A DNA stretch of 10,632 nucleotides from a virus (Duplodnaviria > Heunggongvirae > Uroviricota > Caudoviricetes): IMG/VR virus record IMGVR_UViG_2675903650_000012, positions 1 through 10,632 of that record. The stretch is one strand, 5' to 3'. Position numbers and translations under genes: made by a program. The notes below the pieces were generated by a model that worked only from the letters and a program-made list of their open reading frames with translations, ran no database searches and had not been told where the DNA came from. Numbering within the stretch: position 1 is the stretch's first letter; each line of letters starts with the position of its first letter. Below are positions 1 through 10,632 of the stretch, piece after piece.

Positions 1-164
1 CCGGAAGTTACAGGACAATGGCAGGAGGAAAACTACAGCCCGCAATACGAAAAAGGCCACGCAGTTGCGCAGCCTTATGAATTCTGGTTAAAATCCATTC
101 GATTATAAAAATGTATATCTCATGCTGTTGCCCGAACCCACTCAGGCTTTTTTTTGCCCACAAG

Positions 165-395
165 AAAGCCCCTCCGGAGAGGGGCTAAAGCCGCGTATCT
201 GTATCATCATGCACATGGTGCCGGGTGCCTCCCGGTGAGTTCAGCCCGGTGCCACTAAACCCGCGTCATTCTCGTTTTGATAATCAGAAATTATACCGTC
301 ACCAGTCGCCCCTCCGCTCAGGGGGATTCACCATGCGAAATTTTTTTAACAAATGCCCAGTCTGACAGGCAACTGTCAACTTACTGAATTGTGAG
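165..395. repeat. Structured repeat module, copy A: GC hairpin (168..185), ~120-bp imperfect palindrome closed by catggtg/caccatg (214..336), and conserved downstream blocks
   Basis: Identical or near-identical blocks shared with copy B: aaagcccctccggagaggggct; catggtgccgggtgcctcccggtgagttcag; gcccctccgc(t/a)cagggggattcaccatgc; ttttaacaaa; ca(a/g)c(t/a)gtcaac; ctgaattgtgag. The sequence between blocks has diverged. Confidence 0.6.
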
Positions 396-430
396 CAACA
401 TAGCATTTAACGGGGAACCTGTTTTCTGCA

Positions 431-459
431 GTAAAAAGGCCCACCGGAGCGGATGGGCC
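431..459 (-). terminator. Candidate rho-independent terminator on the minus strand, between the two repeat modules
   Basis: Stem ggccca/tgggcc (438..443 / 454..459) with a 10-nt loop; on the minus strand the hairpin is followed by a run of five T (complement of A 433..437). Confidence 0.45.
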
Positions 460-651
460 TGGAAGGATAGCGGTCATGTGATGCCGGTTTCCCGGTAACT
501 CAGCACCGGTATCTGAGTCAACGTTTTCTCTACTGGGTCATTTCCGATACGCCCTGCCTGCTGACAGGCTTTCATCACATCTGAAAATATAGCACCCTGA
601 CTGATACTGTAGTACCCAAGGTTCCAGAAACTGTGATGTATCCGGCACAGA

Positions 652-878
652 AAAGCCCCTCCGGAGAGGGGCTGGAGAGTGGCGCTATGTGCCATTGCAT
701 GGTGCCGGGTGCCTCCCGGTGAGTTCAGTATCAGCACCTGAACCCGCACAGAAAGGATAAGGGTCGGTGACAAAACACCAGTTGCTGATTGCCCCTCCGC
801 ACAGGGGGATTCACCATGCCAGTTTCTTTTAACAAACTCCCCGCAAACCAGACAACAGTCAACCGCCTGAATTGTGAG
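652..878. repeat. Structured repeat module, copy B (paralog of 165..395): hairpin 655..672, palindromic core 698..819
   Basis: Same ordered conserved blocks as copy A with different intervening sequence; the gttcag...ctgaac hairpin is perfect here and has one mismatch in copy A. Confidence 0.6.
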
Positions 879-1002
879 GTATTTAAAAATTTCAACGGGT
901 AACTGATACCCTGCTAATCGCCTGATGCTTTCTTTTTCAGCAACGGGAAAGCAACAACCACCACACCCACCAGCCGCCCATTTACCACAAATAAAAAATC
1001 CT

Positions 1003-1200
1003 TCACTGCGGAAGGCGTCTGTAACAACCGAACTGATAGTCTGCCAGACCCGCCATAACCAGCTGGGTCAGTATTAACTGGCAGCGTTCGCGTGAAAGGT
1101 AAGTATTCTGCGCAATCTCCCCGACTGTCGCCGGTTCGGTGGCACTTAATTCATTAAACACCACTCTGGCGGTTTCTGTCATATCCTGCTGTTTTAGCAT
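1003..1200 (-). CDS. Small hypothetical protein (65 aa) with an HTH/winged-helix-like segment, downstream of Q
   Basis: Taken from the internal ATG (MLKQQDMTETARVV...) of the 1003..1293 ORF, preceded by a purine-rich gggaaaaagac; the upstream GTG start in the track lacks an RBS and would overlap the terminator region. The segment ATVGEIAQNTYLSRERCQLILTQLVMAGLA resembles a DNA-binding HTH. Confidence 0.45.
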   Translation of the reverse strand: MLKQQDMTETARVVFNELSATEPATVGEIAQNTYLSRERCQLILTQLVMAGLADYQFGCYRRLPQ

Positions 1201-1320
1201 GTCTTTTTCCCTTTTCCGGTTAACGTGACACACCAATAACTCTTGTCGAAAAAGCCAGCAAGCTGAAAGACCGGTATTCACCACCACCAGCACGTTTACT
1301 GTACTGATGCGATTTCAGTC

Positions 1321-1347
1321 ATAAAAAACCCGCCAGGCGGCGGGTTT
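1321..1347 (-). terminator. Strong intrinsic terminator directly downstream of Q (tR'-like position)
   Basis: Perfect 6-bp GC stem cccgcc/ggcggg (1329..1334 / 1339..1344) with a 4-nt loop; on the minus strand it is followed by six T (complement of A 1323..1328). It lies ~60 nt after the Q stop codon. Confidence 0.65.
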
Positions 1348-1404
1348 AAGTTGTGTGGCGTAGTAACCACTCTTAACATACTGACATACTTTTTGCGGAC
1401 CGCG

Positions 1405-1797
1405 CTAATCATTTTTTACTTTTTTGGGCAGCCAGTCGTCCATCTCCAGCCTTACACCCAGCATCGACAGACATCCGTCAATAAATCCTTCAGCAATCTG
1501 CATCTCAATTCGTATTGCCTTTTCGCTCTTCTTTCTTGTTCTGGCAATCTGCCTTTTTGATATGCGCAGCAGATAATGAGCTACCAGCAGCGAATACTCG
1601 TCCGGTTTTTTCTTCTTCAGGCGCGTAAGGCAGTTTTCGATGATAAGGCCGTCATCATCGCTGCAGGCCGGGCGAGGTTTAGCGGTGGATGGTAAAAGGC
1701 CTTTAAATCCAGCAGCTATCGGAGAATAGTCCACCCCGGCGTTACCACTTGCCGCCCATGCCCCCCAGCGTTCGAGAACCATCTGAATATCACGCAT
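1405..1797 (-). CDS. Q: Late-gene antitermination protein Q (QuuD/phage-21-type Q family)
   Basis: Translation from the ATG at 1797 (MRDIQMVLERWGAWAA ... RLEMDDW...), with GGAG 7-10 nt upstream; the track start at 1812 is a TTG. The N-terminus and the ~130-aa length match my memory of E. coli cryptic-prophage Q proteins (QuuD-like). It is the last gene of the nin-region operon. Confidence 0.7.
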   Translation of the reverse strand: MRDIQMVLERWGAWAASGNAGVDYSPIAAGFKGLLPSTAKPRPACSDDDGLIIENCLTRLKKKKPDEYSLLVAHYLLRISKRQIARTRKKSEKAIRIEMQIAEGFIDGCLSMLGVRLEMDDWLPKKVKND

Positions 1798-1814
1798 CAA
1801 CTTTCTCCACAAAA

Positions 1815-2810
1815 TCAGGACAGCACACCAATCGCCAGCGCGCGATCGATAAAACGAAATATCAGCTCCAGCTGGGAGCCATACTTCTCTTCAAATGCCA
1901 CGGTATCCGCATGCAGCTCGTCGTGATGCTTTCTGCACAAAGGCAACACAAAGAGGTCATGCGCTTTTGTAGCCATTCCACCCTGACCGTGACCTATCAG
2001 GTGGTGGGGATCATCAGCAGGCTTTCCACAACATGCGCACGGCTGCGTCTTAACCCAGCGCGTGTACTTTTCATTAACCCAGCGGCGACGTTTTGGGCGT
2101 AACATAAAAGACTCCGGCGACTCCGGATCCACTTTCAGCGCCAGCACCTTTTTCGCTTTATCCCGGATAATACTGGTGGCGGGAACCGAAGGCACAAGGT
2201 CACTTTCCCGGGTGACAGACGGCACAACCGTCTTCGGTAATCTCAGTACCTTACGGGCTGCACTTTCCGGTAAGGCATCCGCCAGGTCATTACGAATCAG
2301 CCACCAGCACAGTTCCGGCATTGTCACAACGTGACTGTCATCAAAACCGAGATCCCGACGCACAACAGACAACACCCAGCGGGCACAGTTATCCGTTGCC
2401 ATTGATTCCAGCCGTTCCGTGAACTGATCGCGCAGCTGGTTATCGCAGTGCCAGCACAGACGGATTGCGCCCGGAGCGTGTCGCATTGTGGTCATGTTCT
2501 CGCTGTGCCATCCGGAATGAGGCCACTGGCAGCCTTTTTCACGAAGTAACCAGCTTTCAAGACATTCCACGCCACCAGCACGACGGATCACTGCCTCATG
2601 GCGGAACACGGACCGAACGGCAGGATCATCCGCCAGCGGTTGTGATGCCGCCGGAACGGCACCACTGGCGAAAGATGAATAACGCTCCGGCTCAGGCTCC
2701 AGCAGGACACGCCCCTGCATAAACAGGGGCATCAGCTCTGAACCTGGCCTGAACAATACGATCCCCATACGCGGGGCAATTTCAGGGGTCAGTAGTGCTC
2801 TCACAGTCAC
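1815..2810 (-). CDS. DUF968-like phage protein (YdfU-like) with a C-terminal Cys/His zinc-finger or HNH-like motif
   Basis: 331-aa ORF; C-terminus CACCGKPADDPHHLIGHGQGGMATKAHDLFVLPLCRKHHDELH (C-x2-C ... HH ... C ... HH ... H). It sits immediately upstream of Q, as ydfU does in Qin-like prophages (from memory). Start uncertain: GTG at 2810 or GTG at 2804 behind a GAGG. Confidence 0.7.
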   Translation of the reverse strand: MTVRALLTPEIAPRMGIVLFRPGSELMPLFMQGRVLLEPEPERYSSFASGAVPAASQPLADDPAVRSVFRHEAVIRRAGGVECLESWLLREKGCQWPHSGWHSENMTTMRHAPGAIRLCWHCDNQLRDQFTERLESMATDNCARWVLSVVRRDLGFDDSHVVTMPELCWWLIRNDLADALPESAARKVLRLPKTVVPSVTRESDLVPSVPATSIIRDKAKKVLALKVDPESPESFMLRPKRRRWVNEKYTRWVKTQPCACCGKPADDPHHLIGHGQGGMATKAHDLFVLPLCRKHHDELHADTVAFEEKYGSQLELIFRFIDRALAIGVLS

Positions 2811-2811
2811 C

Positions 2812-3627
2812 TCAATGAACGGTATCGAGCAGCTTTAACAGCTCAGGAAATCGGGATTCGAAGAAATGCGGCTGCGTCTCGCGCGGATTTGCAGGACTGG
2901 TGATGTTCTTGCCGAACATGCAGCCTTTCGCGGTCAGCGACCAGAATTTTTTGATGTTGTTAATCGCGGTACGGCTGTATCGTTCGCGTTGTTCAACGAT
3001 CCCCAGCTTCGCCATCTGGTGATATGCCTGATTAGCCGTCAGGCGGATACCATACTGCTTCAGCAGTGCACTCAGCGACAGCGTAGGGCGGCTTGAACCA
3101 TCTGGCGCATCAGCAGGTGCATCAATGGCATAGATCGGCATAAGTTCAGGAAGACCAGCTACCTTTGATAATTTCTGGTATGCACCAAGTTTCGAGGAGT
3201 TTGACAGATTTAGAGTCTTTGCTGCTGATTCAAGCAGAATGACCCCGGATTTAATTTTGTCGGATGTGGTTTCTTCTGGTGATGAATTATGAAGCGCATC
3301 AAAAGTACGTATCACTTTTAAGCTGAATGCCGGGCTGATCCACATTGCATATGCATAGACCAGCTCTTTACAGACATACGTCCCACCATTGCGCCCCTGA
3401 ATGGTGATGACAGGAATACTACGGGAATCTCCCGTAGTTTCTTCTTCCAATAATTCCACAAGAGCCTTCGTTTCAGGACGACGCATAAACTCGTGAACTT
3501 CCAGCGAACGGGAGGAGCGATTCTCACCAGCGGCAAGAAGAGCAGCTTTCTGAAGGTCGTTAAGACAGTAGTTAGATTCGAAGTACTGGCGCACAGAAAC
3601 GCCATCAATTACAAGCAACTGATTCAT
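2812..3627 (-). CDS. KilA-N domain protein
   Basis: Translation from the ATG at 3627 (MNQLLVIDG...), with GGAG 7-10 nt upstream. KilA-N hallmark GGTYVCKELVYAYAMWISPAFSLKVIRTFD. The C-terminal half (from about residue 150) is a separate, unassigned region. Confidence 0.75.
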   Translation of the reverse strand: MNQLLVIDGVSVRQYFESNYCLNDLQKAALLAAGENRSSRSLEVHEFMRRPETKALVELLEEETTGDSRSIPVITIQGRNGGTYVCKELVYAYAMWISPAFSLKVIRTFDALHNSSPEETTSDKIKSGVILLESAAKTLNLSNSSKLGAYQKLSKVAGLPELMPIYAIDAPADAPDGSSRPTLSLSALLKQYGIRLTANQAYHQMAKLGIVEQRERYSRTAINNIKKFWSLTAKGCMFGKNITSPANPRETQPHFFESRFPELLKLLDTVH

Positions 3628-3724
3628 TGGTTTCTCCACAAATTTTTATCCACGAGCGGGACTGCACTCCCTTTTCGTTGATGCAGGATGAACTTACTGC
3701 GATTTTTAATAGTTATCAAGGATA

Positions 3725-3744
3725 CACTGTTCATAAATACAGTA
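3725..3744. promoter_or_regulatory. LexA-box-like palindrome (SOS-box candidate) upstream of the KilA-N/DUF968/Q genes
   Basis: CACTGTTCATAAATACAGTA: CTGT (3727..3730), an 8-nt AT-rich spacer, ACAG (3739..3742); 16 of 20 positions match the consensus TACTGTATATATATACAGTA as I recall it. Flanked by GATAC (3721..3725) and GTATC (3742..3746). Lies in the 160-bp gap between rusA and the KilA-N gene. Confidence 0.4.
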
Positions 3745-3789
3745 TCTTTAACGAGGTAATACCCAAATTTAGGGTGTTGCTCAATTCCG

Positions 3790-4185
3790 TTACCGAGTTG
3801 CTAATTTGCAACTCGCTTTTTCGTACTTACTGATAGTGATCTCGACCTTCCCTTCCGGGATAACCGGTCCCCACTCCACCAGCATTCTTTTCACCTGGCT
3901 GTCGTCTTCCCACACACCCGCGTGGGTCAGGGCGTCAAACAGCGCCTTGTTATAGTTGTCCAGATCGCGGATCCGGTTATCCGGAGGAAACAACACGATC
4001 TCCACTGAAGCAGGTGCCGACGTTGGTTTCGGCAGACGACGTAACTGCTCAACTATTGCTGCACACGCCGCGCTCTGGAATTTTCGCCCCGCCGCGCTTA
4101 TCAGGCTCTTACCAGCAAACGCCCCTTTGTTGGGGTGTCGCCAGTACGTGTTCACGCTGGGCGGAAAAGGCAGTATTAGCTTCAT
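3790..4185 (-). CDS. rusA: Crossover junction endodeoxyribonuclease RusA (Holliday junction resolvase)
   Basis: 131 aa; N-terminus MKLILPFPPSVNTYWRH resembles RusA (...LPWPPSNNRYYRH) and the catalytic-region motif RIRDLDNYNKALFDAL is present. The ATG overlaps the upstream stop (ATGA). Confidence 0.9.
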   Translation of the reverse strand: MKLILPFPPSVNTYWRHPNKGAFAGKSLISAAGRKFQSAACAAIVEQLRRLPKPTSAPASVEIVLFPPDNRIRDLDNYNKALFDALTHAGVWEDDSQVKRMLVEWGPVIPEGKVEITISKYEKASCKLATR

Positions 4186-4835
4186 GCCACCATCTCCCTG
4201 ACCAGTTTTTCCGCCTGCTGGCGAACCTGCGCCAGAAATGCCTCACCACATGCCTCAAGTTCATCGCGCCCGATGTAGCTGATTGCCGGTCCCTTCCAGG
4301 TCTTGTCGAAAACAGCAATAGCACCAGCGAAGAAAGCACCTGTTGGCACCTGCTTTTCGTCTTTCGGGATAAACCAGGCAGGCAGTTCAAAACCAATACG
4401 CCCGCGAATAAAAGCAATATGATCTGCATCTTCCGGCCACCACACTTCGCTGGTGGCAGCTTTGATCAGGAAAACATAGCGCCCGCCTTTATCACGCATG
4501 GCAGTGGCATGCTTCATGATGTAACGCATGCCGGTGATGTATTGCCCCTCATGCTGACTGGCGCGGCTGTACGGGGGATTGCCAAAGGCAGCACCTTTAA
4601 GCTCCGCAAGACGTTCTGACCAGTCATGCGCCAGCGCGTTGTCTTCCGCCGTGTAATACGCGGCACATTTGGCGTTATCACCGTCAGTGAACAGATCCAG
4701 AACAAACGGACCAAACAAGGTGTTAATTCCCCAGAAAATGTTATCCGGCGTGCGCCACTGATCTCCCACTTCCTTCAGTTCATGGGCTGGTTTATTCCGC
4801 AGTTCCACCAGCGCCTGGCAATATTTATTACTCAT
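4182..4835 (-). CDS. Phage DNA N6-adenine methyltransferase (Dam-type)
   Basis: 217 aa; NPPY catalytic motif (AAFGNPPYSRA); typical nin-region methylase of lambdoid phages. Start ATG overlaps the stop of the upstream 30-aa ORF (TAATG). Confidence 0.85.
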   Translation of the reverse strand: MSNKYCQALVELRNKPAHELKEVGDQWRTPDNIFWGINTLFGPFVLDLFTDGDNAKCAAYYTAEDNALAHDWSERLAELKGAAFGNPPYSRASQHEGQYITGMRYIMKHATAMRDKGGRYVFLIKAATSEVWWPEDADHIAFIRGRIGFELPAWFIPKDEKQVPTGAFFAGAIAVFDKTWKGPAISYIGRDELEACGEAFLAQVRQQAEKLVREMVA

Positions 4836-4927
4836 TAAGCCCCCACGTAAAAAGCATCCGCAATGTCTCCGGAAGTACAGCCAGGATGGGCTTCAATGAA
4901 TTTCTGAACTTCATTCAAAAGACTCAT
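4835..4927 (-). CDS. Small ORF (30 aa, MSLLNEVQKFIEAHPGCTSGDIADAFYVGA), hypothetical
   Basis: Not in the ORF track (too short). Strong SD AGGGGGTG 5 nt upstream of the ATG; its stop overlaps the methylase ATG (TAATG) and its start lies 2 nt after the O-like stop. Confidence 0.35.
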   Translation of the reverse strand: MSLLNEVQKFIEAHPGCTSGDIADAFYVGA

Positions 4928-4929
4928 GA

Positions 4930-5913
4930 TCACCCCCTGAATCCTGCCGGAATCTGGCTGTAGTCCACGTTGTCGTAACTGGCTTTGAAGTACGGGTCCT
5001 CGCGTCTGGCTGCAGATACCGCAGGAACTTCCCAGGATTCTTCGAAATGACGATCCGGACCAAAGAACGTCGACGCCTGCTTCACGAACTGGGTACCGGT
5101 ATTTCCAGAGACACGCACCCAGGCGGCATAGCGTTTCACACCGTCGAGCATGGTTTCGGGTGTCACACCTTCCCTGATTCGGGCTTTCCAGGCTTTAAAA
5201 GCGGCGGATTTTGAATTACCACCAGCACGTTTGGGATATTCCTGCCAGGCCTGTTCAAATTCCGGTGAATATTCCTGTCGGGCAGAACGCGCTGGCGCAG
5301 ACGCGTCAGCGGATGCATCAATAGTGTTTTTAGTCTCCGTTGTAATCTCTGTAGTAATCTCTGTATTTGTATCAACATTCAGCGTATCCCCTGTTCCGTT
5401 ATGACGTCGGGGGGTGTTCCGTTTTAACGTAATAGCTGTATCGCTGATTGCATTATTGCTGTTACTTTCTGGCGAAACAGAAGAAGGTGTGGTGATGGCC
5501 GCAATTGCCTGTGGGTTGATCCCGACAAACAAAATATTGCTGCATTTCACCCCATCGAGCATTTCCACCGTGCGTAAATCCAGAGTAATAAACCCTGCAT
5601 CGCGCAGACGCTTCAGCGCATCTGCGGTTTCCCTTTTCCCGAAACCAAACTGCTCAGCAAACGCCTGGTAGCTTCTTTGCAGTTTGTCGCCCTGAAAACG
5701 CTTGCGATATCCCAGCAACGCTCCGGTGTGCTCATCCCTGACCTCTGTCGGGCGGTACCAGTAAACGATCTCTGAAAGCAGAGCGATAGCCGTCGCATCC
5801 GGACGCCCACTGGGTAGTCGAATATATTTCCACCAGTTCGCAGGTGTAACATTGCCGGAAATATTAATTTGACCAATAGCCATAACTTCCGGTGTGGGGG
5901 CGTAACGGCTCAT
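4930..5913 (-). CDS. Phage replication initiator / replisome organizer (lambda O-like), with iterons inside the gene
   Basis: 327 aa; N-terminal region (...IVYWYRPTEVRDEHTGALLGYRKRFQGDKLQRSYQAFAEQFGFGKRETADALKRLRDAGFI...) resembles DnaD/replisome-organizer N-domains. A central linker (TEITTEITTETKNT, ASADASA) is encoded by direct DNA repeats, as ori-lambda lies within O. Confidence 0.65.
   Translation of the reverse strand: MSRYAPTPEVMAIGQINISGNVTPANWWKYIRLPSGRPDATAIALLSEIVYWYRPTEVRDEHTGALLGYRKRFQGDKLQRSYQAFAEQFGFGKRETADALKRLRDAGFITLDLRTVEMLDGVKCSNILFVGINPQAIAAITTPSSVSPESNSNNAISDTAITLKRNTPRRHNGTGDTLNVDTNTEITTEITTETKNTIDASADASAPARSARQEYSPEFEQAWQEYPKRAGGNSKSAAFKAWKARIREGVTPETMLDGVKRYAAWVRVSGNTGTQFVKQASTFFGPDRHFEESWEVPAVSAARREDPYFKASYDNVDYSQIPAGFRG
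5333..5380. repeat. Candidate origin iterons inside the O-like gene
   Basis: tagtctccgttg / taatctctgtag / taatctctgtat / ttgtatcaacat: tandem 12-bp units, with two exact gtaatctctgta copies at 5342..5353 and 5354..5365. Confidence 0.5.
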
Positions 5914-6209
5914 ACAACCTCCTTCCGCGGCATGAGAATTGTGTAGCCACGCGCAGGTTGTAGTCTGGCTTTTGCATCAATAGTAAGCGTTGCAATTTTT
6001 CGGATATGAAGATAACCAGCTCTTTCCAGTGCCAGGGTTTCCCTGAATATCGCTTGCTTAGAACAACAGCAGAAATCAGCAAGCACCTGATGATCAATAA
6101 CTCTCTCGCCTTCACCGTCTGAAGAACCCGACATCAAAACACGCAACATAATCAGGCGCTGAATCGGGTTATCGAAAGCACATCCGCACACAAACTGAAA
6201 ACAGTTCAC
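5910..6209 (-). CDS. Hypothetical protein (99 aa), translationally coupled to the O-like gene
   Basis: Stop overlaps the O-like ATG (ATGA at 5910..5913) and start overlaps the upstream stop (6206..6209). Cys-rich (CGC, CCC); a possible HTH at QAIFRETLALERAGYL. Confidence 0.5.
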   Translation of the reverse strand: MNCFQFVCGCAFDNPIQRLIMLRVLMSGSSDGEGERVIDHQVLADFCCCSKQAIFRETLALERAGYLHIRKIATLTIDAKARLQPARGYTILMPRKEVV

Positions 6210-6430
6210 GCCACACCTCCCAGACGCTTAAACATTTTTCCGGAGCAAAAGGCTATAAGCGGCATACTGATGCGGTAATTACGGCCCAGCGGTTCACAAA
6301 TCACCTTCTGACATTCACGGTCAACCAGGCTGACACGTAGAACATGCCCTGCAGGCGTGGTGTACCACTGACCAGGACGAGGACAACGGAAAGTCTGATT
6401 GGTAAACCGTTTGAAAATATTCCGGATCAT
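6206..6430 (-). CDS. Hypothetical protein (74 aa)
   Basis: ATGA overlaps with both neighbours; same strand and operon context. No family recognised. Confidence 0.45.
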   Translation of the reverse strand: MIRNIFKRFTNQTFRCPRPGQWYTTPAGHVLRVSLVDRECQKVICEPLGRNYRISMPLIAFCSGKMFKRLGGVA

Positions 6431-7587
6431 TTGCGCCCCCTTACCTCTGAAGGGTTCAGCGACAAATTTATGAGACTGGCCAGTAGCGCCGCGTCGTTGA
6501 TGCGGTCATACAGACTTACAGCCAGCGGGGATTCGGCTTTTGCCAACATGGGATAAAGCTGCTGCAGCCAGACCTTGTGGATTACCGACAGGTGGGAGTA
6601 AAGCACGCTGGCGTTATCTGCGGCATCGCTCAGCGTGGATGGCTTTGAAAGCAGTTTTTCCATCTGGTTAAAGGCATTGATGTATGCCTCTTTGAACCGG
6701 GCAGCACGTTTACCCGTGAAACCCATAGCAAGAAACGCAAAACCGTCTCGTGTGATTTGATAGCAAGGGAGCTTGCGTGTACCACCGTTCGGTTGATTTA
6801 CCGAAATCGATGTCTCCGCAAAATTGCGGGCACAAAACTCTGGGGAACAATCCAGAGTGCGGATCTTTTTCAGCACATCGTCGTGACGCTTGGAGAAGGA
6901 GTTGGCAACAGCCAAAGAAGTGGTAACGGCCTGGCCGTTGTCAATGGTGATTTCAGGTTGAGTGAGGGCTGGGATCGTAGCCATGATGGCAGCCTCCGTT
7001 GACAGTGAAAAACTTCCACCACCGGAAACGCCAATTTCACTGGTGGTGAACTGGACGGGGTTGGCGTAACCGGCGTCAACGGAGACCGGCGCACCTTTCG
7101 GTGCCCCCGCCCAGCCCACCATAATCTGGATGTGAGCAAATGCGGACGATAAAAAAGACGCTGGCGCGTCATACATCGCCGTTGACAATTTCAGGACGCC
7201 AATCCCGGCACCCGCTTTATAAGGTGCCTGAACAGTGTAACGTCCCGGAATGGCAGAATCAATGTGCTGGTGGTCCTTCACACTCAACAAAATCACGCCT
7301 GAATTTCCACAAAGGACTAAAGCACTCATGCTGGTAGTCTTTGCGAAGATAGATAACGCGCTGTGTTTCTGGCTCCCAACGAATAACATGAACATAAAGT
7401 CCTCTTCCGTCACGAAACCAGCGGTTAAGTTCCTGCACAACTCGCCCCCCACAGTCAGGTAAAGTTCTCTGTGGTTACTTACAGCCAGGTGATTTGGTAA
7501 TCTGCATTCATGCCGTAACAACAGGTGTTCAGCGACGCTGACCACCAGCTGTTGCGACAAACGGTTATTTGCCGTTAAACTATTCAT
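6427..7587 (-). CDS. Rha-family phage regulatory protein with a ~200-aa N-terminal extension of unknown function
   Basis: Residues ~205-320 (MATIPALTQPEITIDNGQAVTTSLAVANSFSKRHDDVLKKI...YQITRDGFAFLAMGFTGKRAARFKEAYINAFNQMEKLL) match the Rha N-terminal domain. The ORF continues in frame ~200 aa upstream (Gly-rich linker VSGGGSFSLS) and its ATG overlaps the stop of the CII-like gene (ATGA at 7584..7587). Confidence 0.65.
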   Translation of the reverse strand: MNSLTANNRLSQQLVVSVAEHLLLRHECRLPNHLAVSNHRELYLTVGGELCRNLTAGFVTEEDFMFMLFVGSQKHSALSIFAKTTSMSALVLCGNSGVILLSVKDHQHIDSAIPGRYTVQAPYKAGAGIGVLKLSTAMYDAPASFLSSAFAHIQIMVGWAGAPKGAPVSVDAGYANPVQFTTSEIGVSGGGSFSLSTEAAIMATIPALTQPEITIDNGQAVTTSLAVANSFSKRHDDVLKKIRTLDCSPEFCARNFAETSISVNQPNGGTRKLPCYQITRDGFAFLAMGFTGKRAARFKEAYINAFNQMEKLLSKPSTLSDAADNASVLYSHLSVIHKVWLQQLYPMLAKAESPLAVSLYDRINDAALLASLINLSLNPSEVRGRK

Positions 7588-8153
7588 GCGTTAGTTTCTC
7601 CACAACCAGAAGCAATCGACGCCACGACGCCCGGAGCTGCACACTCGCGGGCGTTACTATTTTCTGGAGCGCAGAAGATTTTGTAGACCAGTGCTGCATG
7701 CTCCTGGAGCTTCGAAATTGAGAGGTACAGCTCGTCGTTAATTGCTGTCTTCTCATGCGGTTCCACTACACCGTCTTCGATTGCTGAACGAATCTGTCTG
7801 GAATAACTGCCGATCTGTTCAATGACTTCCAGCAGACGCTGGTTAATATCGGCGTTGTCCACATCCTCGACGTCAGGAAGAGACACAAAGACGCCATTTG
7901 CAGACTGCGCCACAGCGTCAGCAATGAAGTGAGTTCCACCAGCACGTTGTAAAATCATTGCCCATCCCAGCGGGAAAATCTGATCGCCATCGGCACGAAG
8001 GCGATTGAATAAAGCGTTCTCTGTTACATCCAGCCACTCAGCAGCTTCAGCGTAACCCCCCGGCAACGCCGCGATAGTTTTTCTGACAGCTTTCACGTAC
8101 CACTCAGGCTGTTTTTCTACTTTCCAGTGATGCTTACCCACGGTTAGCCTCAT
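7584..8153 (-). CDS. Putative CII-like / YdaT-like regulator (189 aa)
   Basis: Second gene after the Cro-like gene, the usual CII/YdaT position. Putative HTH GGYAEAAEWLDVTENALFNRLRADGDQ. No SD is visible upstream of the ATG (cagaacg ATG). The family assignment is positional and weak. Confidence 0.5.
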   Translation of the reverse strand: MRLTVGKHHWKVEKQPEWYVKAVRKTIAALPGGYAEAAEWLDVTENALFNRLRADGDQIFPLGWAMILQRAGGTHFIADAVAQSANGVFVSLPDVEDVDNADINQRLLEVIEQIGSYSRQIRSAIEDGVVEPHEKTAINDELYLSISKLQEHAALVYKIFCAPENSNARECAAPGVVASIASGCGETNA

Positions 8154-8184
8154 CGTTCTGTGGTTAAAAATTGAAGGTGTTCTG

Positions 8185-8385
8185 TTAATCTTTCGGATAG
8201 ATATCCGGTCTTAAGTCAGATTTCGTAATTGCACCTGACGTGCATTGCTCAAGTTTTTTAGCCAGCACAAAACTGGCTTTTTTATAACCATTGAAAACCA
8301 GCCGTAAGTAGCCTGGTGTTGAGCCAACTTTTCCGGCCAACTCGCCCTGCTGTTCTTTGGTTAAAGAGTCCCAATACGCTTTCAT
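8185..8385 (-). CDS. cro: Cro-like HTH regulator (YdaS-type, 66 aa)
   Basis: Translation from the internal ATG at 8385 (MKAYWDSLTKEQQGELAGKVGSTPGYLRLVFNGYKK...LRPDIYPKD), with GGAGG ~10 nt upstream. The C-terminus (...TKSDLRPDI) resembles YdaS (...CEELRPDI). The longer 167-aa ORF would begin upstream of the predicted pR start site and overlap the operators. Confidence 0.7.
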   Translation of the reverse strand: MKAYWDSLTKEQQGELAGKVGSTPGYLRLVFNGYKKASFVLAKKLEQCTSGAITKSDLRPDIYPKD

Positions 8386-8390
8386 ACAAT

Positions 8391-8470
8391 ATGTACCTCC
8401 GATATACATATTACATGATTGAGATGAACCTTCAAGATACTTGTACCCTATCGGTACAAAGGTTTTAATT
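8391..8470. promoter_or_regulatory. Divergent switch region (OR-like): candidate pR (minus), candidate pRM (plus, leaderless cI), and two 19-bp operators
   Basis: Operators ATGTACC-tccga-TATACAT (8391..8409) and the perfect palindrome TTGTACC-ctatc-GGTACAA (8441..8459). Candidate pR on the minus strand: -35 TTGAAG (8430..8435), 16-bp spacer, -10 TAATAT (8408..8413). Candidate pRM on the plus strand: -35 TTGTAC (8441..8446), 17-bp spacer, -10 TTTAAT (8464..8469), placing the start site at or next to the cI ATG (8476). Confidence 0.5.
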
Positions 8471-8475
8471 TCGTT

Positions 8476-9150
8476 ATGAAAACAGTCCATGACATCCGGC
8501 GGTCTAACGCCAGAAAACTGAGAGATGGTGTTGGCGGGAATTCTTCCTTTGCCACCATGATTGATCGCGAGCCAACCCAGACCAGCAGGTTTATGGGAGA
8601 TGGTGCTACTAAAAATATCGGTGACAGCATGGCACGGCACATCGAAAAATGTTTCGACCTGCCTGTCGGATGGCTTGATCAAGAACACCAGACAACAAAC
8701 ATCACAAAAAAACCTGATGTTTCAATTACTAACAAACAAATAACGTTAGTCCCTGTCATATCATGGGTACAGGCCGGAGCATGGAAAGAAGTTGGCTATT
8801 CTGAGGTTGATTTGAGCACAGCAGAAACTTATCCCTGCCCTGTACCCTGTGGCGAAATGACTTATATCTTGCGGGTGATTGGTGATTCAATGATTGATGA
8901 GTACCGCCCGGGAGACATGATTTTTGTAGATCCTGAAGTCCCTGCCTGCCACGGTGACGACGTTATTGCATTGATGCACGATACAGGCGAAACCACCTTT
9001 AAGCGGTTGATAGAAGATGGAACACAGCGTTACCTCAAAGCATTAAACCCAAACTGGCCTGAACCTTACATTAAGATCAACGGTAATTGCTCTATAATTG
9101 GCACAGTAATTTTCTCAGGAAAACCAAGAAGATACAAAATAAAGGCCTAA
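8476..9150 (+). CDS. cI: CI/C2-type prophage repressor (HTH N-domain plus S24 LexA-like autopeptidase C-domain)
   Basis: 224 aa; C-domain LVPVISWVQAGAWKEV...VIGDSMIDEYRPGDMIFVDPEV...TFKRL...LKALNPNWPEPYIKINGNCSIIG closely resembles P22 C2 / lambda CI. Catalytic Ser (GDSM) and Lys (TFKRL) are present, as is an Ala-Gly candidate cleavage site (VQAGAW). Confidence 0.9.
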   Translation: MKTVHDIRRSNARKLRDGVGGNSSFATMIDREPTQTSRFMGDGATKNIGDSMARHIEKCFDLPVGWLDQEHQTTNITKKPDVSITNKQITLVPVISWVQAGAWKEVGYSEVDLSTAETYPCPVPCGEMTYILRVIGDSMIDEYRPGDMIFVDPEVPACHGDDVIALMHDTGETTFKRLIEDGTQRYLKALNPNWPEPYIKINGNCSIIGTVIFSGKPRRYKIKA

Positions 9151-9161
9151 TCAATATTTAT

Positions 9162-9185
9162 AACCTGCTTCGGCAGGTTTTTTTA
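9162..9185 (+). terminator. Intrinsic terminator of the cI transcript
   Basis: Stem aacctgc/gcaggtt (9162..9168 / 9173..9179) with loop ttcg, followed by a T run through 9184; begins 12 nt after the cI stop. Confidence 0.7.
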
Positions 9186-9188
9186 TAC

Positions 9189-9221
9189 TTGACAATGTAC
9201 CCTTGAGATACATAATGTATC
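9189..9221 (+). promoter_or_regulatory. pL-like promoter with overlapping operators
   Basis: -35 TTGACA (9189..9194), 16-bp spacer, -10 CATAAT (9211..9216). Operator ATGTACC-cttga-GATACAT (9195..9213) has the same architecture as the two OR sites; a perfect 15-bp palindrome GATACATaATGTATC (9207..9221) overlaps the -10. Confidence 0.6.
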
Positions 9222-9633
9222 TAAAAGAAACATGTCACAGGCAAGATTAAACAAAATTTGGTTGTAACACGGCGTATGGCACATGCGTCGTTAGCGGTCT
9301 GGGGACGTTAAAGGGGACAATCCACTCCTTGCTCGGGCAAACAAACCAGGTAGCCGGAATGTGCAAGTCAATGAGGATGCTGATAAGACGCCTAACCAGC
9401 GTGGCGATTCGGTTTGACGCCTGGGAAGAGACCAGGGTGCAACGATGAGGGCATTTATGGAACCGCGACAAAGTATGGTGCCGTAACTGGCTAAGTGCTC
9501 TCAGCGTTGTGGTAATCCGCGAAATGGCGCGGCGGTAAGTATGGCGGGGTTATTCCTTCCCCGTTGAGGACACCGGGTTGTCAGGTTGACCATACGCTTA
9601 AGTGACAAGCCCACCACAACAGCCACTGCTTTG

Positions 9634-9679
9634 GCGGTACCAGTTTGTACACTTGCTTCCGGCTGGTACCGCTCTTTTT
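9634..9679 (+). terminator. Strong intrinsic terminator inside the long leader downstream of pL
   Basis: Perfect 10-bp stem gcggtaccag/ctggtaccgc (9634..9643 / 9663..9672) with a 19-nt loop, followed by tcttttt (9673..9679). Confidence 0.6.
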
Positions 9680-9816
9680 ACAAAACAGAGAAGAGCATCA
9701 CCGGACGACGGGCTCATAACCCAATCCACCCGGGCGGCTGCCACCGCAGGTGTTCTTCTCTGTTTTGTGGAGAAACCAACCGACCTTGCAGGGTCGATAT
9801 GATGAGGAGCAGCAAA

Positions 9817-10179
9817 ATGGCTAGCGAACGCAGTACTGATGTGCAGGCATTTATCGGGGAGCTGGACGGCGGCGTATTTGAAACCAAAATCGGCGCTGTT
9901 CTCAGTGAAGTCGCTTCAGGTGTGATGAACACGAAAACCAAAGGGAAGGTCTCGCTCAACCTGGAAATCGAACCGTTTGATGAGAACCGTGTGAAAATAA
10001 AACACAAACTCTCATATGTTCGTCCGACTAACCGCGGGAAAATTTCCGAAGAAGACACCACCGAAACGCCGATGTATGTCAATCGCGGTGGTCGCCTGAC
10101 TATTCTGCAGGAAGACCAGGGACAATTACTGACTCTTGCCGGTGAACCTGACGGAAAACTCCGCGCAGCAGGTCATTAA
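9817..10179 (+). CDS. Hypothetical protein (120 aa), first gene of the pL-side operon
   Basis: Translation from the ATG at 9817 (MASERSTDVQAFIGELDGG...), with strong SD GAGGAG (9804..9809) 7 nt upstream. The upstream in-frame extension to 9586 runs through the terminator hairpin and begins at a TTG. Acidic, with no Arg-rich motif, so not N-like. Confidence 0.6.
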   Translation: MASERSTDVQAFIGELDGGVFETKIGAVLSEVASGVMNTKTKGKVSLNLEIEPFDENRVKIKHKLSYVRPTNRGKISEEDTTETPMYVNRGGRLTILQEDQGQLLTLAGEPDGKLRAAGH

Positions 10180-10244
10180 TATCGTTCTTAATTAACTGAT
10201 TATTTATCTCATCACTGAATATCTTTATATAGTGAGGACTTATT

Positions 10245-10628
10245 ATGTCTCAGAACTTAGACGCAACCGCAATTAATCAAATCCATGCCCTTATTTCTGC
10301 GCAGGGTGTTAATGAAATTATCAGTAAGATTGGTGCCGATGCTGTGGCATTGCCTGAGAATTTCCGCATTCATGATCTGGAAAAATTTAATTTAAATCGC
10401 TTCCGTTTCCGTGGTGCGCTTTCCACTGCCAGCATCGATGACTTTACCCGTTATTCTAAAGATCTTGCAGATGAAGGCACCCGCTGCTTTATCGATGCTG
10501 ATAATATGCGTGCCGTCAGTGTGCTTAACCTGGGTACTATTGATGAACCAGGTCACGCAGATAACACCGCCACTCTCAAACTGAAAAAGACAGCACCGTT
10601 CTCTGTGTCAACGACGGATGAAAAGTGA
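10245..10628 (+). CDS. Hypothetical protein (127 aa)
   Basis: Complete ORF from ATG to TGA, with SD GAGGA ~7 nt upstream (agtgaggacttatt ATG). No family recognised. Confidence 0.6.
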
Positions 10629-10632
10629 TCCA

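Follow-up and report, generated by a model that had tools for sequence, protein, structure and literature searches.

Five putative 19-bp operators and a probably leaderless cI mRNA in the lambda-type immunity locus of the SfV/e14 prophage group

Background

Which sequences flanking a prophage repressor gene act as its operators, how many of them there are, and where the repressor mRNA starts are the questions raised by a cI/cro locus in a 10,632-nucleotide stretch of Caudoviricetes DNA (positions 1 to 10,632 of IMG/VR record IMGVR_UViG_2675903650_000012; the window, hereafter). An initial annotation, made from the letters alone, proposed three 19-bp operators of one design, one each for the promoters pR, pRM and pL, and a cI transcript that begins at its own ATG. 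Prophage switches often contain a repressor gene without a leader, as in the case of lambda cI, racR, dicA and paaR2. Among the mRNAs of Escherichia coli K-12, dRNA-seq found merely five to be leaderless, and that of ymfK is one of them (Romero et al. 2014, PMC4681348). The ymfK gene (cohE) lies in e14, itself a defective prophage, and encodes a CI-like, SOS-responsive and essential repressor.

By sequence comparison, the locus in the window belongs to the SfV/e14/cdtI group of prophages, whose cI/cro immunity region it represents. The CI encoded here and that of SfV are 100% identical, and the DNA that spans cro, OR, cI and OL matches ymfT-ymfK of the K-12 prophage e14 at 95.6% identity. Megablast returned cdtI (98.8%) and Stx2c-converting phages (98.4%), and also Ayreon, 2H10, SfV and SfIV (97-99% DNA identity), a well-populated phage group; the same immunity module is found in SfV, SfIV, cdtI, Ayreon, 2H10 and the Stx2c-converting phages. 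The GenBank record of SfV annotates cI, cro, a terminator and a "putative operator region", the last of which corresponds exactly to 8391..8459 of the window; it gives no individual sites, OL or promoters. The immunity locus, a putative operator region and a leaderless transcript were all on record before this work, which adds little to them as discovery. What appears to be new is a site-by-site parse of OR1-3 and OL1-2 as 7-5-7 dyads, based on phylogenetic footprinting, together with a predicted link between the recognition helix of CI and the operator half-site; the individual sites may have been drawn before, in the original SfV and e14 papers. Among the accessible papers we found no binding, footprint or reporter work on this CI or Cro, and no operator mapping for e14.

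Results

Repressor and Cro-like protein

By domain, fold and motif, the CI of this locus is a lambda-type (LexA-like, self-cleaving) repressor. Its C-terminal domain matches Pfam Peptidase_S24 (residues 93-212, 1.5e-26) and, in a profile search against the PDB, the C-terminal domain of lambda CI (E 4e-16), and the best Foldseek matches (2ho0, 8gmu and 3bdn) are all lambda repressor. The segments WVQAGAW (containing A100-G101), GDSM (S138) and FKR (K176) show little or no variation across 15 homologues and, as judged by motif, supply the Ala-Gly cleavage site and the Ser/Lys catalytic dyad of such repressors. In the AF2 model (mean pLDDT 80 over the whole model and 85-92 over residues 1-70), the N-terminus forms helices at residues 4-19, 22-28, 33-40 and 50-59, the second and third of which would make up a helix-turn-helix. 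None of the Pfam HTH models fires on CI; by profile its N-terminal domain matches Rep of Salmonella phage SPC32H (5d50, 2e-8), to which it is nearer than to that of lambda.

The small gene divergent from cI is annotated as cro in SfV and cdtI. Its position beside cI is that of an HTH cro gene, though the HTH family matches of its product are weak, with 25.1 bits for YdaS_toxin against a cut-off of 30 bits, a likewise sub-threshold score for HTH_3, and PDB matches to phage Cro proteins at E 0.01. A Shine-Dalgarno sequence, GGAGG, precedes it at 8400..8396 on the minus strand, with the predicted +1 of pR just upstream. A CP76-type CII-like ORF follows cro.

Table 1. Predicted operators, promoters, genes and terminator of the immunity region (window coordinates; centres in brackets; match to the consensus ATGTACC-N5-GGTACAT)
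Feature	Position	Strand	Sequence or elements	Match	Remarks
cro-like gene	8185..8385	-			66 aa; orthologue of SfV cro and e14 ymfT/croE; 90 bp from cI
OR1	8391..8409 (8400)		ATGTACC-TCCGA-TATACAT	12/14	-85 from cI ATG in homologues; half-sites 1.73/1.62 bits; centre ~+1 of predicted pR; includes cro Shine-Dalgarno
pR (predicted)	8408..8435	-	-35 TTGAAG (8435..8430), 16 nt, -10 TAATAT (8413..8408)	 	predicted +1 ~8401
OR2	8424..8442 (8433)		ATGAACC-TTCAA-GATACTT	11/14	covers pR -35; centre -43 from pRM start; absent from the initial annotation
OR3	8441..8459 (8450)		TTGTACC-CTATC-GGTACAA	12/14	covers pRM -35; centre -26 from pRM start
pRM	8441..8469	+	-35 TTGTAC (8441..8446), 17 nt, -10 TTTAAT (8464..8469)		+1 at 8476
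cI	8476..9150	+			224 aa; leaderless, with predicted start at A of ATG 8476
Terminator, intrinsic	9162..9185	+			after cI; annotated in SfV and Ayreon; conserved in relatives
pL	9189..9216	+	TTGACA-16-CATAAT (11/12)		predicted +1 ~9223; annotated promoter in Ayreon
OL1	9195..9213 (9204)		ATGTACC-CTTGA-GATACAT	13/14	occupies pL spacer
OL2	9215..9233 (9224)		ATGTATC-TAAAA-GAAACAT	11/14	centre ~+1 of pL; absent from the initial annotation

Five candidate operators flank cI

The three 19-bp dyads proposed initially, OR1, OR3 and OL1 in Table 1, are present where they had been placed, and so are TTTAAT, the ATG and a 15-bp palindrome at pL. Their overlap with promoters is likewise as described: OR1 falls on the start region of pR, OR3 on the -35 box of pRM, and OL1 between the -35 and -10 boxes of pL. 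The shared pattern, WTGTACC-N5-GRTACAW, holds for OR3 and OL1; in OR1 the right arm begins with T rather than G, which is a single mismatch. OR3 had been called a perfect palindrome, a description that fits its 7-bp arms and not its spacer, CTATC, which is not self-complementary. A scanner listed the same 19 bp (8441..8459) as a "terminator-like" hairpin, an assignment that we rejected, since the sequence lies upstream of a leaderless gene, its T-run belongs to the -10 region, and its arms are conserved as DNA dyads while the spacers vary freely.

The number of sites is where the earlier picture, that of a minimal switch in which each promoter has a single operator, is not supported. The whole window was scanned with the consensus ATGTACC-N5-GGTACAT, the 14 arm positions being scored at a threshold of at least 11/14. 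Exactly five sites were found in the 10.6 kb, all of them in the intergenic stretches on either side of cI, so that OR would comprise three sites and OL two; the next-best match (10/14) lies within the cI coding sequence. Shuffled windows contained a mean of 0.44 sites at this threshold. With the pattern of the initial annotation and up to three mismatches, the same five places were recovered on both strands, which gave 10 matches against 3.5 +/- 2.6 expected, a number reached in just 4 of 200 shuffles. In the complete 47-kb genome of cdtI, the same five sites and no others score at least 11/14. As the consensus was built from these very sites, conservation rather than such counts is the decisive evidence.

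The five predicted sites overlap pR/pRM on one side of cI and pL on the other, about 0.8 kb apart. The centres of OR1 and OR2 are 33 bp apart and those of OL1 and OL2 20 bp, whereas OR2 and OR3, with centres 17 bp apart in the window, share 2 bp. The two additional sites, OR2 and OL2, are the weaker matches.

Conservation of the sites and the arms at OL

A search of viral contigs for CI returned only copies that were 100% identical, which are useless for footprinting. A profile scan of one-genome-per-species contigs was therefore used instead. This yielded 72 loci, about 30 of them with full-length CI homologues (88-42% identity) from Klebsiella, Pantoea, Serratia, Proteus, Rosenbergiella, Salinicola, Halomonas and Phytohalomonas. 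With two exceptions, these homologues have three dyads, placed some -85, -52 and -35 relative to the ATG of cI. The two that depart from this layout are L106, a Symbiopectobacterium locus, where the middle dyad falls under the scan threshold, and a Halomonas locus (L117) with a 40% identical CI, where the motif differs. In a separate comparison of 88 loci with near-identical CI, half-site columns were set against all other columns by Fisher's test. Variation affected four of the 40 half-site columns and 17 of the 50 remaining ones (p = 0.011), and for non-singleton variants the difference was 1/40 against 13/50 (p = 0.0025). Natural variants at OR3 and OL1 are confined to the spacer.

On the far side of cI, the Enterobacterales relatives carry an almost invariant arrangement of TTGACA, OL1, one base and an ATGTACC arm, and OL1 reaches 14/14 in many of them. 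OL2 stands 20 bp from OL1 in most of these relatives. Its right arm (G-AAC-) is the weaker one; six of 27 relatives have it in degenerate form and yet retain the left arm.

The 15-bp palindrome at pL (9207..9221, GATACATAATGTATC) had been taken for a second, different motif. It turns out to begin with GATACAT, which is the OL1 right arm, and to end with ATGTATC, the OL2 left arm, with a single base between them; as abutting arms of two neighbouring dyads, it presents the same half-site motif and no second one. The unit GRTACAT-A-ATGTAYC might nonetheless be recognized as such, for example by Cro or by another dimer that reads back-to-back arms, and the palindrome is in fact better conserved than the 19-mer of OL2, with its ATGTACC arm kept in the six relatives just mentioned. 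We regard this reading as unlikely. Both arms of the palindrome are ordinary half-sites, and OR has no comparable palindrome; in the Proteus and Rosenbergiella relatives, the palindrome is absent while OL1 and pL are kept. Moreover, the offset between OL1 and OL2 sets two dimers on the same helix face, and one strong arm combined with cooperativity would account equally well for the retention of the left arm. The dimers at OL1 and OL2 of lambda share a helix face as well.

OR2 and OL2 as probable additional sites

Thirty OR regions, no two of them identical and with CI identities between 100% and 42%, were aligned with OR3 as the anchor. The half-site columns of OR carry 1.25-1.89 bits, and OR3 itself has 1.89 and 1.50 bits in its half-sites against 0.32 bits in its spacer. 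At the offset of OR2, 29 of the 30 relatives score at least 10/14, as compared with a background frequency of 7e-4, and the sequence of OR2 is invariant across e14, SfV, Ayreon and cdtI. Part of this conservation belongs to the TTG of the pR -35 box, which is located in the OR2 spacer. That OR2 is conserved merely as a -35 box was considered and rejected, for the arms of the extra sites lie outside the promoter hexamers and are conserved there, so promoter function alone does not account for it.

These data bear directly on the possibility that the three operators proposed initially, one each for pR, pRM and pL, are the only ones, and that the sequences at 8424 and 9215 are left unbound. The three do match the consensus best (12-13/14 against 11/14), and the example of phage 933W indicates that lambdoid switches can depart from a six-site plan. 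The two further sequences are, however, the sole additional matches of at least 11/14 both in the 10.6-kb window and in the 47-kb genome; both are conserved in the family at fixed offsets, and alleles of OL2 include the near-consensus ATGTATC-TATAG-GATACAT as well as ATGTACC-CAAGA-GAAACAA. We consider a three-operator locus very unlikely.

The half-site follows the predicted recognition helix

In the helix predicted to make the contacts (residues 33-40 of the AF2 model), the sequence TQxSR pairs with TGTACC arms. This pairing also holds in Pseudomonas and Amphritea loci that are homologous in the N-terminal domain of CI only. Where a Halomonas CI carries SYISR, the arms read [AT]TTACC...GGTAAT within the same three-site layout, and a protein with STISQ is accompanied by TTAGCG-N3-CGCTAA. 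The half-site motif co-varies with the predicted recognition helix of CI, and this covariation is the best available stand-in for a binding experiment. Together with position and conservation, it supports the original proposal of a cI/cro switch with these dyads as its operators, and we infer from it that CI would be the protein that reads them. That they are bound chiefly by Cro or a host factor, while CI works elsewhere, is very improbable: Cro and CI do share sites in lambdoid phages, so that sequence by itself cannot assign the binding protein, but the motif changes with the CI helix even where the homology is limited to the N-terminal domain, and the sites occur to either side of cI and nowhere else in the genome.

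Promoters and the start of the cI mRNA

A promoter scanner with a threshold of 9/12 listed pL alone, as pR and pRM match at 8/12 and so fall below it. The two weaker promoters draw their support from conservation and from the published transcription start site (TSS) of ymfK. Both the TTG of the pR -35 box and the pR -10 box are conserved among the relatives, and pL is near-invariant in the Enterobacterales relatives (CI identity from 100% to about 56%). The 580-nt untranslated stretch after pL gave no result in an Rfam E-value search, with ARAGORN or by MFE z-score.

It had also been proposed that the pRM -10 box places the start of transcription at the cI ATG, and here there is experimental evidence from the e14 orthologue. 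By dRNA-seq, the TSS of ymfK, at 1202156, coincides with the start of the gene and leaves a leader of 0 nt (PMC4681348, Table S3), and the window does not differ from e14 at any position from the -10 box through the ATG. The supplement of Romero et al. lists no TSS for ymfT or ymfJ, and the starts of pR and pL given in Table 1 are predictions. Nearly every homologue inspected has a TnTAAT/TnAAAT box 6-7 nt ahead of the ATG (9 nt in the Symbiopectobacterium locus L105); the six bases between it and the ATG are unconserved (0.26 bits), and a Shine-Dalgarno sequence is lacking. A leaderless cI mRNA is therefore documented by experiment for the e14 orthologue, and its extension to the window is supported by sequence identity.

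Discussion

A model of the switch

Taken together, the locus is best read as a bistable immunity switch of the lambda type, belonging to the SfV/e14 group, in which a CI dimer acts on five 19-bp operators of 7-5-7 design, and we place the probability of this reading at about 0.8. A dimer of CI would recognize the consensus ATGTACC-N5-GGTACAT. Bound at OR1, over the start of pR and the cro ribosome-binding site, and at OR2, over the pR -35 box, it would turn off cro and the lytic operon; bound at OL1, in the pL spacer, and at OL2, at the pL start, it would silence pL. The cI gene would be transcribed from pRM into a leaderless mRNA that starts at its own AUG, and occupation of OR3, over the pRM -35 box, would result in negative autoregulation. 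Cro presumably uses the same sites and shuts pRM. RecA-stimulated self-cleavage of CI at its Ala-Gly site (VQAG) would then lead to induction of the prophage.

The position of OR2, centred at -43 from the pRM start, could also permit activation of pRM. In lambda, CI activates pRM from that same position of OR2 (near -42/-43). The 2-bp overlap between OR2 and OR3, a difference from lambda, makes it uncertain whether the two sites can be occupied simultaneously. This overlap (centres 16-17 bp apart) is conserved from E. coli to the Halomonadaceae, and OR3, which sits on the pRM -35 box, is the best-conserved and most symmetric site of all. It is conceivable, if still rather doubtful, that occupancy of OR2 and OR3 is mutually exclusive, or else obligatorily coupled, and that the logic of the switch is then not that of lambda. 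Should this be so, the locus would exemplify a repressor that is leaderless, very weakly expressed and kept under tight negative autoregulation, without positive autoregulation in the style of lambda. As for the order in which the sites might fill, OR3 matches the consensus at least as well as OR1, contrary to the affinity order in lambda; the example of 933W shows that affinity is poorly predicted by consensus match.

Comparison with known switches

The locus resembles lambda in its divergent cI and cro genes, in a tripartite OR that extends across two back-to-back promoters, in a leaderless cI, in an OL beyond cI, and in a repressor with an S24 C-terminal domain and an Ala-Gly cleavage site. 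It differs from lambda in the length of its operators (19 bp, 7-5-7, versus 17 bp), in an OL of two sites at a distance of about 0.8 kb from OR (2.4 kb in lambda), in the 33-bp distance between the centres of OR1 and OR2, and in the overlap of OR2 with OR3. N, cII and cIII have not been reported for SfV and SfIV.

In the number of its operators, the locus is closer to 933W, which has five natural operators (OR1-3 and OL1-2, described there as ten half-sites). The DNA-binding domain and the operator sequence of 933W are nevertheless unrelated to those described here, and the 933W repressor has been reported to bind non-cooperatively. A third kind of likeness exists with PaaR2/YdaS of CP-933P and with RacR and DicA of K-12, where a leaderless repressor gene is likewise divergent from a cro-like gene of the YdaS family, with several dyads within an intergenic region of about 90 bp. 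Unlike this CI, PaaR2 has no S24 domain, is tied to a toxin-antitoxin pair, and uses a different operator motif.

Distribution of the immunity type

The immunity region was found in 1324 of 5426 complete E. coli genomes, about a quarter. Its immunity type is carried by K-12 itself (in e14) and by Shigella serotype-converting, Stx2c-converting and Cdt-converting phages. Since it is so widespread, a correct operator map should be of use in predicting homoimmunity, the essentiality of ymfK and the induction of toxin phages by the SOS response.

The e14 locus, ymfK (cohE)/ymfT (croE), has all five sites and differs from the window by single bases, which fall in spacers and in two right arms, those of OR1 and OL2. 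In SfV and cdtI the operator arms are identical to those of the window, and e14 departs in its arms only at 8404 and in OL2. With the same CI and the same operator arms, the window would thus fall into the SfV/e14 homoimmune group. Similarity to e14 and SfV stops directly after OL2, at a mosaic joint beyond which the window and cdtI differ from both, as would fit the edge of an exchangeable immunity module.

Sequence between OL2 and the first gene on the pL side

A mosaic-type joint lies at position 9233/9234 of the window, exactly at the end of OL2, one of two predicted CI operators at pL. In e14 (locus L084), SfV (L001) and many relatives from the Enterobacterales, OL2 is followed by a conserved leader that begins ACAGGCAGGACGCCCACGAAGTAGCCGCC, and the sequence that follows OL2 in the window, cdtI and Ayreon is unrelated to this leader of e14 and SfV. 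Approximately 580 nucleotides (9234..9816) separate pL/OL2 from the first gene on the pL side.

This interval contains no convincing ORF, and is itself a mosaic made up of conserved non-coding pieces. Positions ~9256..9433 match the unannotated trnI-ban spacer of phages P1 and P7 (78% identity). Positions ~9269..9512 show 82% identity to a segment of an E. coli O157 typing phage, and this segment overlaps with an annotated tRNA-Arg. Further pieces are matched by Stx2a phages and SfIV. Neither an Rfam family nor a tRNA was found in 9234..9816, and the fold z-score of the interval was -0.72.

Distant relatives

The three-site OR is retained in distantly related loci, namely L112-L114 and L116 (Salinicola, Halomonas and Phytohalomonas), L137 and L148, in all of which the cro SD is still wrapped by OR1. 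The overlap between OR2 and OR3 measures 3 bp in L137 and the Halomonadaceae loci, and 4 bp in L148. A scan of the Halomonadaceae loci (L112-L114 and L116) revealed no OL-like sites within 140 bp downstream of cI; thus, the pL of these loci, if any, is located elsewhere.

Genes and RNAs beyond cro

The gene that follows cro codes for a "CII"-family protein orthologous to YmfL; cII, cIII and N were said in the SfIV genome paper to be absent from these phages. The matches to C4 antisense RNA and isrK both fall within a 386-aa ORF. The Phage_ASH domain of this ORF (Pfam, aa 117-212) overlaps with the C4 RNA and also with most of isrK; a Rha antirepressor domain comes after it. The region looks like an RNA-controlled antirepressor module of the P1 immI or Gifsy isrK-anrP type, adjoining the CI switch, and the "Ash" portion of the ORF may in reality represent RNA genes. 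Two copies of the STnc100 sRNA family, spaced ~490 bp apart, were also detected.

Features of the window outside the operator region
Feature	Position	Strand	Basis
STnc100, copy 1	156..365	minus	166 bits
STnc100, copy 2	643..848	minus	141 bits
386-aa ORF	6427..7587		
C4 antisense RNA	7039..7126	minus	Rfam, 81 bits
isrK	7151..7227	minus	Rfam, 62 bits
Gene after cro	7584..8153	minus	Phage_CP76, 4.9e-14
First pL-side gene	ATG 9817		SD GAGGAG, 9804..9809
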